A DNA stretch of 64,000 nt from an uncultured Clostridia bacterium (GCA_934149165.1 CAKPDY010000002.1:14680-78679), one strand, 5' to 3'; numbered from the stretch's first letter, positions 55,433 through 62,826 are shown. The notes: generated by a model not told the origin, from the sequence alone. Numbers and translations are program-made.

Positions 55433-56479
55433 CTAAAACGTCCCATTCTCCTTCTTTTCCTCCAATATTCTTAAAAAGGCATCAACAACCATGGGATCAA
55501 ACTGAGTTTCCCTATTTTTCTTAATTTCTTCAACAATAACACTCATTTCCATACAATCTCTGTATGTACGTTTTGAAGACATAGCATCAAAGGCGTCAGC
55601 AACCGTTGCAATACGTGCCAAATATGGTATATTTTCTCCAACCAAGTTCTCTGGATACCCTTTTCCATCATATCTTTCATGATGATATTTAACAATAGGA
55701 ATTATATCTGCAAAAATAGTAGCATTTGACAATATTTTTGCACCTATTAATGGATGTTTTTTTATTTCTGAATATTCATCATCTGTTAATTTTCCTTCTT
55801 TTAATAAAATACTATCTGGTATTCCTATTTTTCCAATGTCATGAAATAAGCCTCCTATTTTTAATGTTTTTAAGTCTTTTTCTGATAACCCCAATTCTTT
55901 TCCTATTAAAACTGAAAGCTCTGACACTCTATCTGAATGTCCTAATGTATATGGGTCTTTTGCTTCTACTGTGTAGCGTAATGTTTCAATACTTTCTAAA
56001 TAAGCTTTTTCTAATTTTTCTTTTGCATCATATAATTCTTTATTTATTCTTTTTATTTCATTCATTTGTTTAATAGATTTTATTCCTGATTCTATTAATA
56101 ATAATAATTGGTCAAATTTATTGCTTTTCTCACAATACCCCTGTATATCCAATTTTTTTATTGTTTCTAATGGTGGTGCCAAATCTTTATGACCTGTTAA
56201 TAATAAAATATATAATTCTGTATTAAATTTTCTAATTTCTTCAACAACTTGATCTCCATGATATGGTGACATTAAAAAGTCTAAAACCAATAAATCAAAA
56301 TGTTCATTTTTAATTAATTCTATTGCTTGAACAGGATCTGTTACACCCGTAAAATGATATCCTGACCTTTTTAATACAATTGACAAAGAATCTATTATTC
56401 CTTCTTCATCATCAACTGCTATAATTTTATACTCATTTTCTTTTCCTTCCAGTTTTTGATTCTGGTATATCTGCCTCAT
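55433..56479 (-). CDS. response regulator with an HD-GYP phosphohydrolase output domain
   Basis: An N-terminal receiver (IIAVDDEEG.., DLLVLDFLM) followed by HD-GYP (HDIGKIGIP ... HHERYDGKGYP). Confidence 0.8.
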   Translation of the reverse strand: MRQIYQNQKLEGKENEYKIIAVDDEEGIIDSLSIVLKRSGYHFTGVTDPVQAIELIKNEHFDLLVLDFLMSPYHGDQVVEEIRKFNTELYILLLTGHKDLAPPLETIKKLDIQGYCEKSNKFDQLLLLIESGIKSIKQMNEIKRINKELYDAKEKLEKAYLESIETLRYTVEAKDPYTLGHSDRVSELSVLIGKELGLSEKDLKTLKIGGLFHDIGKIGIPDSILLKEGKLTDDEYSEIKKHPLIGAKILSNATIFADIIPIVKYHHERYDGKGYPENLVGENIPYLARIATVADAFDAMSSKRTYRDCMEMSVIVEEIKKNRETQFDPMVVDAFLRILEEKKENGTF

Positions 56480-56496
56480 CTAACTTCTCCCCTTTA

Positions 56497-61500: not shown

Positions 61501-62826
61501 TTCTTGTGTTAGTATATTTATATTATTTATTTTTAAATCTTTACATTTAATAATTTGATTTATTATAGATAATATTCTTTTATGAAATTTTTCTATATCA
61601 TCATTATCATATTTATTTGTTTTATAATCATAACAAATATTAGTATTTCCTGTATCATTTATATCTAAAATATGAATTTGTATATCATCTGCACAATTAC
61701 CATTAAAAGCCCATCTAGTCTCATAATTATATCCTTCTGTATTTGTTTTTGTAATTTGATATGATAATAATATATTATATAAATTTGGTAAATTTGGTTG
61801 TTTTTTTCTTAAGTTTTCAAGTATATTTTGATATGGATATTTTTGGTGTCTAAGCATCGTCAAAGAATTACATGCAATATTTTTAGAAAATTCACAAAAC
61901 GTACTTTCATTATTAACATTTATACGCACTGGTAGTGTACTAATAAACATTCCCATTGTATTTTTCTGATTGTAATTTACCCTATTTAATATAGGAGTTC
62001 CTATTACAAAATCGTGTGAATTATTAATTTTACTTAAATATATTGCATATACTGACATAAAGAAATTAAAATTTGATATATTGTTTTCTTTACAAAATTC
62101 CGTTATTTCACTATTTAATTCTTTGGAAATTACATATGTACTTCTTTTAGCTTTACATTCTGTTTCTTTGCCTAAGCAATTAAATTTTGAAGGAATTGTA
62201 ATATTTTCTGGTATATTACTAAATACAGAAGACCAATATTGTTCATCTTTTATAAATTTGTTACTACTCATATATTCGTTTTCTTCATTGTTAATATAAT
62301 CTAAATATGAAAATTTAGTTTTATATTCTATGTCTTCATTCCCATTTAATAATAAATTATAATTATTTATAACCTGTCGACAAAAAAGCCCCAAAGCCCA
62401 TGAATCTGCCAACAAATGATGTATATTTATGCAAAATCCACCCTGATTATTTGGAAATTTAAATATAACAATTTCAAACATATTATTTTCTGAAAAAATT
62501 TCATATTTTTTACTTTGCATTTCTTCTTCAATATTTTTTATGCATGAAACATCTGCTATTTCTTGAACATTAATTTCTACATTTTTGTATTTAGTTAAAT
62601 ATTGCATAACTATATTTCCTTCTAATTTAAAATGAAGTTGAAAATTATCATTATTTTTTATAGTAATGTTCATTGCTTTTTTTAATAATTCAAAATTTAT
62701 TTCTGAATAAATTATTGCTGTACCGCATATATTATTTATTGTAGTACCTGAATAATATTGTTCTGTTAAAAAAATATTTTTTTGAGGATTTGTTAATTCA
62801 TATAAATTATTTTTTTTTGCTTCCAT
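58510..62826 (-). CDS. single-module nonribosomal peptide synthetase with terminal thioester reductase (C-A-T-R)
   Basis: C domain HHLLADSW. A-domain cores LIYTSGSTGKPKG, NMYGPTET, YKTGDLAYY, GRSDFQVKLRGYRIELGEIE and PNGKLDRK. PCP motif LGLDSLG. Reductase: the Rossmann loop VFLTGSNGFIGIHIL plus YVYSK. 1438 aa. Confidence 0.85.
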   Translation of the reverse strand: MEAKKNNLYELTNPQKNIFLTEQYYSGTTINNICGTAIIYSEINFELLKKAMNITIKNNDNFQLHFKLEGNIVMQYLTKYKNVEINVQEIADVSCIKNIEEEMQSKKYEIFSENNMFEIVIFKFPNNQGGFCINIHHLLADSWALGLFCRQVINNYNLLLNGNEDIEYKTKFSYLDYINNEENEYMSSNKFIKDEQYWSSVFSNIPENITIPSKFNCLGKETECKAKRSTYVISKELNSEITEFCKENNISNFNFFMSVYAIYLSKINNSHDFVIGTPILNRVNYNQKNTMGMFISTLPVRINVNNESTFCEFSKNIACNSLTMLRHQKYPYQNILENLRKKQPNLPNLYNILLSYQITKTNTEGYNYETRWAFNGNCADDIQIHILDINDTGNTNICYDYKTNKYDNDDIEKFHKRILSIINQIIKCKDLKINNINILTQEEINNIFNKFNCTNVKYGKNKNIMDLFEEKVKKFPQNTAIVCDDEKITYAQLNKQANQLANYLIKNNINKTDIVGVMISRSIEMVVSLIAILKIGATYIPIDPKYPEERVLYLVENSNAKAILVDNTTYANVENVFKINISTSKNEYLNEDINNLNVSINSQDLMYLIYTSGSTGKPKGVMITHNNVHNFLIGINSIIDFKNNKTILSLTTICFDIFGLELWGGLTNGLTVVVATEKEQNNTYLLNKLCLENNVDMIQTTPSRMSFLLKDEENLEFLRSVNTIMLGGEALPKNVIDNVFKHSNAKLFNMYGPTETTIWSTIKNIINNENISIGTPIANTRCYILNNDLELLPPYTPGNLCISGDGLSKGYYNMPELTMQKFTPLPYNKNEIIYKTGDLAYYDENGNLYHLGRSDFQVKLRGYRIELGEIENIILSYGNINEVAVIAQDNHLICYYTSDKNVNEADVVSYLLNNLPEYMVPSDFIKLDKMPLTPNGKLDRKNLPKNIKNKVIEELPKTRTEKLLTEIVCDITHKEVKNINDSFMTLGLDSLGIIQAQTELLSKNINLTTHYFYKYPTIKKLAQKIENNVDDYKEKQSEIPEEFKHYPDEILEKIKDININENILGNVFLTGSNGFIGIHILNELLETTENKIYCLVRGETSEFRIDKLNSTYKYYFKKDLTKYINERIFIIGGDTSYENLNLSAQDLESIKNNVNTIINTAAIVKHYGNIEEFKKNNIQSTQNITKLAYENNIRLIHLSSISVSGNYLVKQDNHNVNFGENDLYIGQHYEDNNYVYSKMESEKCILKYMEKGLTAQILRIGIVSGRFSDGFFQKKINENAFYGRIKSIVEMSAVSDTMLLQKIEFTPVDLCAKAIVTLAKNSVANNKIYNIYNHNLITVEKIIKVLKMLNIDIKILNSSEFNNYVLELSRTNIDSLKGIINDFNYDSNNLLTVNYNFTVNIQSEYTKKYLHLLNFDWPIIDEEYLIKIITHMKNVKFI

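Follow-up and report, generated by a model that had tools for sequence, protein, structure and literature searches.

The 64,000-nucleotide stretch of DNA analysed here (the window) comes from an uncultured Clostridia bacterium (GCA_934149165.1, CAKPDY010000002.1:14680-78679) and carries on its minus strand a 7.4 kb cassette of three genes, encoding a single-module non-ribosomal peptide synthetase (NRPS) with a terminal reductase, a polytopic sensor histidine kinase, and a response regulator that joins a receiver (REC) domain to an HD-GYP domain. The best explanation of our data is that the cassette is a conserved, co-inherited unit of uncultured gut and rumen Clostridia, with a signalling role that is predicted from sequence. 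The three genes are very probably coupled in function, while the chances of a complete loop, in which the kinase would sense the NRPS product and act through the HD-GYP regulator on cyclic di-GMP (c-di-GMP), we judge to be evenly balanced. The preliminary description of the window had placed the three genes at particular positions with 18 nt between the NRPS and kinase genes and 17 nt between the kinase and regulator genes, and we recovered minus-strand open reading frames (ORFs) at exactly these coordinates, with gaps of these sizes:

58510..62826, minus strand: single-module NRPS gene with condensation (C), adenylation (A), thiolation (T) and reductase (R) domains, C-A-T-R, from the ORF (1438 amino acids) and its Pfam domains
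56497..58491, minus strand: sensor histidine kinase gene, 664 amino acids, with Pfam HAMP, HisKA (2e-07) and HATPase_c (1.1e-21)
55433..56479, minus strand: response regulator gene, 348 amino acids, with Pfam Response_reg (1.2e-16) and HD_5 (7.5e-38; also HD)

All three ORFs are intact. The genome has a GC content of ~25% and the cassette DNA one of 22-25%, and at 1438, 664 and 348 codons, and with these Pfam E-values, ORFs in such DNA are not chance.

The preliminary description had tied its reading to the presence of the trio in relatives, and comparative searches found the trio conserved at many loci and in several contexts. Ten distinct single-module loci were counted (the window, L001, L002, L077, L079, L080, L083, L095, L096 and L097), and the NRPS and kinase genes were paired at all of them, with the regulator gene also present at all but L002. 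These loci occupy at least five contexts, namely between tRNA-Met and rpsB, with rpoBC and comEA, with rpoBC and murC, in an unrelated setting in L079, and with htrA/tex or phosphotransferase system genes. An NRPS 100% identical to that of the window was present on other metagenome contigs, where its neighbours were also the same, and NRPS homologs of 57-67% identity were followed by kinases of 61-72% and regulators of 77-84% identity in L001, L077/L078, L079 and L080-L082. Likewise, searches started from the kinase recovered an NRPS upstream and a regulator downstream in L083 (56% identity) and L084 (41%). A metagenome scan with the kinase returned seven loci, three of them informative, and the three most distant sensors that could be placed (29-32% identity; L095-L097) lay between a C-A-T-R NRPS of 1408-1437 amino acids and a REC-HD_5 gene. 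As a negative control, no kinase or regulator match was obtained at ~30 Methanobrevibacter/Methanosphaera NRPS loci retrieved in the NRPS scan; these archaeal reductase NRPSs are ~32% identical to the window NRPS over residues 100-1437 and come from the same gut and rumen habitat, but they belong to different organisms and, unlike the window NRPS, have no adjoining kinase and regulator. All carriers found were uncultured metagenome-assembled genomes or metagenome contigs, the closest relatives being labelled uncultured Clostridium or Clostridia.

Two further features of the related loci were observed. A small ORF without a Pfam match lies between the kinase gene and an inverted regulator gene in the P0014 loci L077 (16442..16726, 94 amino acids) and L078 (9582..9770, 62 amino acids), and has no counterpart in the window. 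A gene for an HtrA-like trypsin-PDZ protease, often accompanied by tex, lies no more than a few kb from the NRPS gene in L090, L091, L093, L094, L095 and L097, which could be plain synteny or could be relevant to a protease-reactive aldehyde product.

The commonest homologs of the window NRPS were C-A-T-C-A-T-R proteins of ~2470 amino acids, and comparison with their loci linked the sensor to the synthetase. The window C-A-T was 45-51% identical to module 1 of the abundant two-module proteins; against L003, window residues 5-1047 were 45% identical to module 1 and 33% to module 2, and the terminal R domains also aligned, so that the window NRPS looks like a one-module derivative. At the two-module loci L003 and L090-L094 the kinase gene directly followed the NRPS gene in six out of six, and a REC-HD_5 regulator gene, on either strand, adjoined in five, with products orthologous to the window regulator (69-74% identity). 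The transmitter half of the two-module kinases was likewise homologous to that of the window kinase (53-60% identity), yet their sensors consist of HisKA_7TM plus PAS and reach ~15% identity to the window sensor, which is background. A sensor with six transmembrane (TM) helices, an extracytoplasmic domain and HAMP thus accompanied the single-module NRPS at 10/10 loci, and HisKA_7TM plus PAS the two-module NRPS at 6/6, while across loci both the kinase core (53-82% identity) and the regulator REC domain (73-94%) stay conserved.

The sensor also varied with predicted substrate. Two kinases with similar identity to the window kinase core (L083, 65%; L095, 62%) differed in the sensor (48% versus 28%), and their NRPSs differed in specificity code, that of L083 being of the glycine type and that of L095 being DLTKIGEVGK. 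Distant single-module clades carry either this Asn-type code, which is discussed among the Asp/Asn codes (PMC12283262), or DIFLVGMVYK, and two-module relatives usually pair one Gly-type A domain with one variable A domain. Furthermore, the two-module locus L090 and the single-module loci L095 and L097 have the same htrA-like, tex, ABC-F and PGA_cap flanks, which indicates that synthetase and sensor were swapped together at one site where the regulator stayed. These patterns fit a co-diversification of sensor and product, as judged from sequences of few clades and confounded by phylogeny. The signalling circuit proposed in the preliminary description is therefore supported, in that the kinase sensor co-varies with NRPS architecture and specificity and the output is an HD-GYP domain and not DNA binding; sensing of the product itself we infer.

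The NRPS contains the following domains:

61492..62808, minus strand: condensation domain, residues 7-445 (Pfam Condensation, 2.6e-70), with HHLLAD at 136-141
60016..61425, minus strand: adenylation domain, residues 468-937 (Pfam AMP-binding, 1.1e-82, plus AMP-binding_C)
59758..59940, minus strand: thiolation (carrier) domain, residues 963-1023 (PP-binding, 7.8e-07), with Ser990 in LGLDSL
58513..59628, minus strand: terminal thioester reductase, residues 1067-1438 (NAD_binding_4, 4.2e-42)

The motif residues of the C domain are H136-H137-x3-D141, and the A domain, which matches 1AMU at 4e-104, has the core motifs SGSTGKPKG and NMYGPTE and the A10 lysine K937. In the R domain the Rossmann motif TGSNGFIG (1070-1077) and YVYSK (Y1234-x3-K1238) are intact, and its closest solved relatives are 6VTJ (1.1e-54), presumably a T-R didomain from a Methanobrevibacter NRPS, followed by 4F6C, the R domain of AusA (3.8e-37).

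Extraction of the A-domain specificity code, proposed as a check in the preliminary description, gave the glycine-type code DILQMGMIWK. Residues were assigned in all A domains of the family by GrsA numbering, which was validated against 1AMU, and in the window NRPS are D656, I657, L660, Q699, M725, G727, M750, I758, W759 and K937. A threonine at position 278, produced by an arbitrary gap in a MAFFT alignment, was rejected because gapless counting (D656+43=Q699) and the HMMER alignment both give glutamine. LgrA module 2, the top whole-domain PDB match, was of no use for specificity since it aligns with a different pocket. The best solved pocket matches by HMMER were 5U89 (DILQLGLIWK) and 4ZXH (DILQLGVVWK), both of which we take to be glycine-activating. 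Glycine codes vary only at positions 299 (Leu/Met), 322 (Leu/Met) and 330 (Ile/Val), and DILQLGMIWK is listed as a glycine code (PMC12283262); the window code matches the consensus D-I-L-Q-[L/M]-G-[L/M]-[I/V]-W-K at every position, and DILQ[M/L]GM[I/V]WK was found in all 26 single-module homologs from the NRPS homolog search. The A domain is accordingly predicted to activate glycine.

The C domain corresponds to the first of the two C domains in the two-module relatives, and its PDB matches mix LCL and starter types (5U89, 1.7e-24; RzmA Cs 7C1H, 2e-13; CDA C1, 5e-10). HHxxxD was kept in nine of the ten single-module enzymes scanned (L079 gave no match), which argues for a working C domain. Next to the DLTKIGEVGK-code single-module NRPS genes of L095 (2785..4512, minus strand) and L097 (2699..4435, minus strand), and divergent from them, we observed a gene for a stand-alone AMP-binding enzyme of 575-578 amino acids (AMP-binding plus AMP-binding_C_3, FadD/FAAL-like), a candidate fatty-acyl activating partner that would lend indirect support to N-acylation in this NRPS family. 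Together with the N-terminal position of the C domain and the retained HHxxxD, these genes favour a C domain that is active and N-acylating. The preliminary description had expected an N-acyl or peptidyl amino aldehyde or alcohol; the domains are consistent with this class and the code narrows it to a glycine derivative, for which we tentatively predict N-acyl-glycinal or N-acylethanolamine.

The kinase divides into a sensor and a transmitter half:

57406..58491, minus strand: sensor module, residues 1-362, in which an extracytoplasmic domain follows five TM helices and precedes a sixth (hydropathy; no Pfam family)
57502..57837, minus strand: extracytoplasmic alpha/beta domain, residues 219-330, between TM5 and TM6 (AlphaFold2 (AF2) domain model)
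56503..57426, minus strand: cytoplasmic transmitter with HAMP 356-399, HisKA/DHp 428-496 (His437) and HATPase_c 555-663 (Pfam)

Hydrophobic segments were found at residues 11-42, 55-85, 112-134, 138-166, 189-218 and 331-362, with a loop of ~115 residues between the fifth and sixth. Across 55 homologs the transmitter residues H437, N566/N570, D600/G604 and G625-T626-G627/G629 do not vary, and Pfam shows HATPase_c as the last domain of the protein, neither REC nor HPt being present. The sensor region gave no Pfam match even at E<=1. A search with residues 1-420 returned 184 clusters, almost all of 660-690 amino acids, and an exhaustive HMMER scan with residues 1-360 found only 207 representatives among 1.84 billion proteins, the full-length members being practically all of 610-800 amino acids and matching at the N-terminus. 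In the AF2 model of the full kinase (mean predicted local distance difference test score, pLDDT, of 77) TM5 continues as a long helix into a compact alpha/beta domain (~219-330, pLDDT ~88) and TM6 runs into the HAMP/DHp helices; modelled alone (residues 212-338) the extracytoplasmic domain had a pLDDT of 83. Foldseek found no match to this domain in the PDB at E<=0.001, the best weak matches (TM-score ~0.5) being to the extracytoplasmic sensors of chemoreceptors and of other two-component kinases, namely 4ZR7, AbfS 2VA0, CpxA 3V67, Tlp3, CzcS and CqsR. Assignment to a known fold family was rejected given the weakness of these matches, and the model suggests, weakly, a domain that is PAS/PDC-like in topology alone.

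In the regulator the REC domain (residues 19-129) has an acidic pocket at D23 and D24 and its phospho-acceptor at D67, and the HD-GYP domain (residues 169-331) contains H213-D214 and HHERYDGKGYP at 266-276. DxxxLDFxM, the HD dyad and HHExxDGxGYP were conserved in 14/14 proteins (the window regulator and 13 orthologs from other loci), and the regulator is predicted from these motifs to be a c-di-GMP phosphodiesterase of the RpfG type. Some HD-GYP proteins are inactive or specific for other cyclic dinucleotides. No DNA-binding domain was present in the regulator (Pfam), and no known riboswitch, for c-di-GMP or any other ligand, was found 5' of the NRPS gene in the window (E<=1) or in six related loci (gathering threshold), so the kinase and regulator do not exert conventional pathway-specific transcriptional control of the NRPS. 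Elsewhere in the window (40229..42184, minus strand) there is a gene for a GdpP-type cyclic di-AMP phosphodiesterase with GGDEF_GdpP, DHH and DHHA1 domains.

The preliminary description considered co-transcription likely, and we agree, given the short gaps, a ribosome-binding site for each gene, the absence of terminator-like sites between the genes and the gene overlaps seen in relatives. The kinase and regulator genes have their own Shine-Dalgarno sequences (AAGGAG and AGGGGAG, respectively), no terminator-like site was found between the NRPS, kinase and regulator genes, and in relatives the NRPS and kinase genes overlap by 11 nt (L097) or 8 nt (L093) and the kinase and regulator genes by 4 nt (L096). 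Upstream, a consensus scan identified:

62867..62894, minus strand: promoter-like site TTGATT-16-TATAAT, 10/12 matches, ~40 nt 5' of the NRPS start codon

This site is suggestive only, since such sites are no commoner in the region than in shuffled sequence. No significant intrinsic terminator structure was found 3' of the regulator gene (z = -0.08), and the transcript may read through towards rpsB; rpsB has a promoter-like sequence of its own, TTGCGT...TGGTATAAT (read by eye). Downstream lie rpsB, tsf, two ORFs without Pfam matches, lspA and pseudouridine synthase genes, and upstream, on the opposite strand, tRNA-Met. The statement that tailoring and transport genes are absent nearby thus holds for this window, where the neighbours are housekeeping genes. 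Searches for flanking direct or inverted repeats, as marks of a mobile unit, gave AT-rich chance matches alone.

A sensor family restricted to NRPS loci among those examined, an architecture that tracks product class, and a conserved transmitter, REC and HD-GYP make the simplest model one that leads from synthase through product, kinase and REC-HD-GYP regulator to c-di-GMP. Judging by the domains and the code, glycine would be loaded onto the carrier domain of the NRPS and most likely N-acylated by the N-terminal C domain, with an acyl-coenzyme A (acyl-CoA) or acyl-acyl carrier protein (acyl-ACP) from primary metabolism, after which the terminal reductase would free N-acyl-glycinal, and a second reduction would give the N-acylethanolamine. 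The small amphipathic product would then leave the cell and reach the dedicated six-TM kinase, which would sense it with its membrane helices, its PAS/PDC-like extracytoplasmic domain or both. The intact motifs suggest that the kinase would autophosphorylate on His437 and transfer the phosphate to Asp67 of the regulator, and the intact HD and HHExxDGxGYP motifs that the HD-GYP domain would alter c-di-GMP hydrolysis and so switch lifestyle outputs. We consider it nearly an even call that the NRPS product, or something derived from it, is what the kinase senses, as the co-variation of sensor and synthetase may indicate.

Several observations weigh against this circuit. Part of the co-variation is expected, since extracytoplasmic sensors always evolve faster than kinase cores, and few independent clades enter the comparison. 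The regulator is a less constant partner, with none within 6 kb in L002, where NRPS and kinase are kept, and none adjoining the pair in L094, and its gene is inverted in L077/L078, L090 and L093, so it is not always on one transcript with the NRPS and kinase genes. Within the window we found no acyl-activating, phosphopantetheinyl transferase or exporter gene; in the search for FadD-like and Sfp-like genes, the latter with an approximate query, the sole match was the A domain of the NRPS itself. No bona fide GGDEF cyclase was detected among the window ORFs scanned, which bears on c-di-GMP production, and PDB similarity does not discriminate whether the C domain is of the starter/lipoinitiation or the LCL subtype. 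Moreover, the products of related gut NRPSs are described as protease-inhibiting dipeptide aldehydes (PMC8210680, PMC12327764), which speaks for the main alternative, that the three genes are co-regulated without being linked by a ligand. On that explanation the kinase would read a host, dietary or envelope cue, c-di-GMP would only coordinate lifestyle with metabolite production, and the product would be an effector aimed elsewhere, such as an aldehyde that inhibits proteases of the host or of competitors. It draws further support from the fast divergence of sensor domains in any two-component system and from the HtrA-like protease gene that recurs beside the cassette in six loci. Nevertheless, it leaves unexplained why the sensor switches with NRPS module number at 16/16 loci, why a sensor family of 207 representatives stands beside a single-module reductase NRPS at every examined locus, and why synthetase and sensor were exchanged jointly at one site, and we regard it as rather doubtful.

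The electrophilic nature of aldehydes, the envelope-quality-control protease HtrA as a frequent neighbour, and an output through a global second messenger with no specific promoter would also suit a role in self-protection or feedback, in which the kinase would detect aldehyde damage or adducts in the envelope and c-di-GMP would tune tolerance or limit production. A generic damage sensor, however, need not switch architecture with product type, the cassette includes no efflux or detoxification gene, and no known riboswitch ties c-di-GMP to NRPS expression, which makes this role quite improbable. The identity of the product in the first step of the circuit can be contested separately, as an idle C domain would lead to the release of free aminoacetaldehyde, which on dimerising would give a dihydropyrazine and then a pyrazine, a volatile signal comparable to PvfC-type or pyrazinone autoinducers. 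In heterologous hosts, pyrazinones without an acyl group were reportedly obtained from several two-module gut relatives that have a C domain at the N-terminus, a result that counts for this variant. Reviews also mention pyrazinone by-products (PMC8210680, PMC12327764), and the window is without an acyl-activating gene; but HHxxxD is retained in nine of the ten single-module enzymes scanned and a FadD-like gene stands beside the NRPS in L095 and L097, and we consider a non-acylated product unlikely. Chance adjacency of functionally unrelated genes is effectively refuted, and hardly credible, given a trio that is conserved across many loci and flanks and recovered in both search directions, genes that overlap, and a kinase-regulator pair that is missing at the archaeal NRPS loci.

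The signalling circuit has its nearest parallel in the Rpf system of Xanthomonas, in which the fatty-acid signal DSF (diffusible signal factor) binds the membrane-proximal sensor of the polytopic kinase RpfC and thereby controls the REC-HD-GYP regulator RpfG (PMC5391125). As in the cassette, the synthase gene is clustered with those for a polytopic kinase and a REC-HD-GYP regulator, and the output is c-di-GMP hydrolysis and not DNA binding. The Rpf synthase RpfF, however, belongs to the crotonase family, whereas the cassette synthase is a C-A-T-R NRPS; RpfC is a hybrid kinase with REC and HPt, whereas the cassette kinase is a plain HAMP-HisKA-HATPase protein whose sensor has no detectable sequence family; and the cassette hosts are Gram-positive anaerobes. 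The resemblance is therefore one of logic alone, and no homology is claimed. Guo et al. (2017, Cell) reportedly described the dipeptide-aldehyde/pyrazinone NRPS family of gut Clostridia, and Schneider and Balskus (2018) are said to have described ruminopeptin. The gut dipeptide-aldehyde NRPSs have, like the window NRPS, a terminal reductase, an N-terminal C domain and gut Clostridia as hosts, but they are two-module enzymes of the order C-A-T-C-A-T-R or A-T-C-A-T-R that yield a dipeptide aldehyde, whereas the window NRPS is a one-module protein of 1438 amino acids with a glycine code and so falls outside a family defined by two modules. The lone amino aldehyde predicted for the window NRPS cannot cyclise intramolecularly to a pyrazinone.

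Reductase-released amino aldehydes or their condensation products do serve as signals in the PvfC-type (A-T-R) synthetases of Pseudomonas and in the pyrazinone autoinducers AI-3 and DPO; PvfC has no C domain, works with different receptors and is not known to be paired with an HD-GYP two-component system. In the pherotype systems agr and ComQXP the signal gene and sensor diversify together while the downstream regulator is conserved, but there the signals are ribosomal peptides and the regulators DNA-binding proteins, with no known homology to the cassette. AusA/PznA of Staphylococcus aureus has an R domain homologous to that of the window NRPS, yet it is a two-module A-T-C-A-T-R enzyme with no N-terminal C domain, in contrast to C-A-T-R. 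To our knowledge, its gene has no adjacent kinase/HD-GYP pair and is accompanied by that for the phosphopantetheinyl transferase AusB only. AusA releases its aldehyde by two-electron reduction (PMC8210680).

There are precedents for reductase NRPSs, for HD-GYP regulators and for synthase-kinase-HD-GYP circuits. The conserved link between NRPSs of this family, a kinase and a REC-HD-GYP regulator, the single-module glycine clade and the Pfam-less sensor family appear to be undescribed; the searchable literature gave no account of such a link, although the 2017 and 2018 papers named above may show neighbouring genes. The NRPS aldehydes of gut Clostridia have been discussed as host-directed protease inhibitors (PMC8210680, PMC12327764), and a private kinase and c-di-GMP phosphodiesterase, if confirmed, would make bacterial cell-cell or self signalling the more likely native role of the NRPS. 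The cassette would then represent a new chemical class of NRPS-made signals in Gram-positive bacteria, offer the first candidate ligand-receptor pairs for the Pfam-less sensor family and for HisKA_7TM kinases, and bring c-di-GMP control in anaerobic commensals of the gut under a small-molecule signal. By extension, the reductase NRPSs of gut Clostridia, among them the abundant two-module enzymes akin to those studied for host-protease inhibitors, might be primarily autoinducer synthases, with a glycine-derived lipid, readable by the host, as the signal of the window clade, a conjecture prompted by the sequence comparisons that we hold to be somewhat unlikely. If true, these enzymes would be autoinducer synthases each with its own kinase and a shared REC-HD-GYP output, synthetase and sensor diversifying like pherotypes, and endocannabinoid-like molecules would have a route of synthesis through an NRPS. 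As the glycine prediction points to simple, synthesisable products, the hypothesis is directly testable, and the small size of the cassette suits heterologous reconstruction, though all carriers found here are uncultured.

Several other features of the window were observed. The two ORFs without Pfam matches between tsf and lspA (51562..53224, minus strand) are 437 and 130 codons long with a 44-nt overlap, and both recur among the ORFs called on the identical metagenome contig L075. The replicative helicase gene dnaB (37048..38407, minus strand) is split into two overlapping ORFs, 37379..38407 with DnaB N and DnaB_C positions 1-148, and 37048..37416 with DnaB_C 146-255; since this gene is essential, its frameshift points to indels from sequencing or assembly in the window, the cassette ORFs being intact nonetheless. 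A very large GH94-family gene (18386..26367, minus strand) is likewise broken into three consecutive, partly overlapping ORFs, with Glycoamylase and the start of the GH94 supersandwich in 21694..26367, supersandwich and catalytic positions 1-48 in 19446..21716, and catalytic positions 70-389 in 18386..19399, reflecting either assembly-error frameshifts or a decaying gene. A gene for a TraG/TraD-type coupling protein (44628..46973, plus strand) lies beside a weak Replic_Relax-like ORF (47412..48353, minus strand), and the pair, ~7 kb away from the cassette, may be what is left of a conjugative element. A second, conventional two-component system, unrelated to the cassette, is encoded at 14630..16833 on the minus strand, its regulator (16075..16833) being of the OmpR type and its kinase (14630..16024) of the HisKA/HATPase type.

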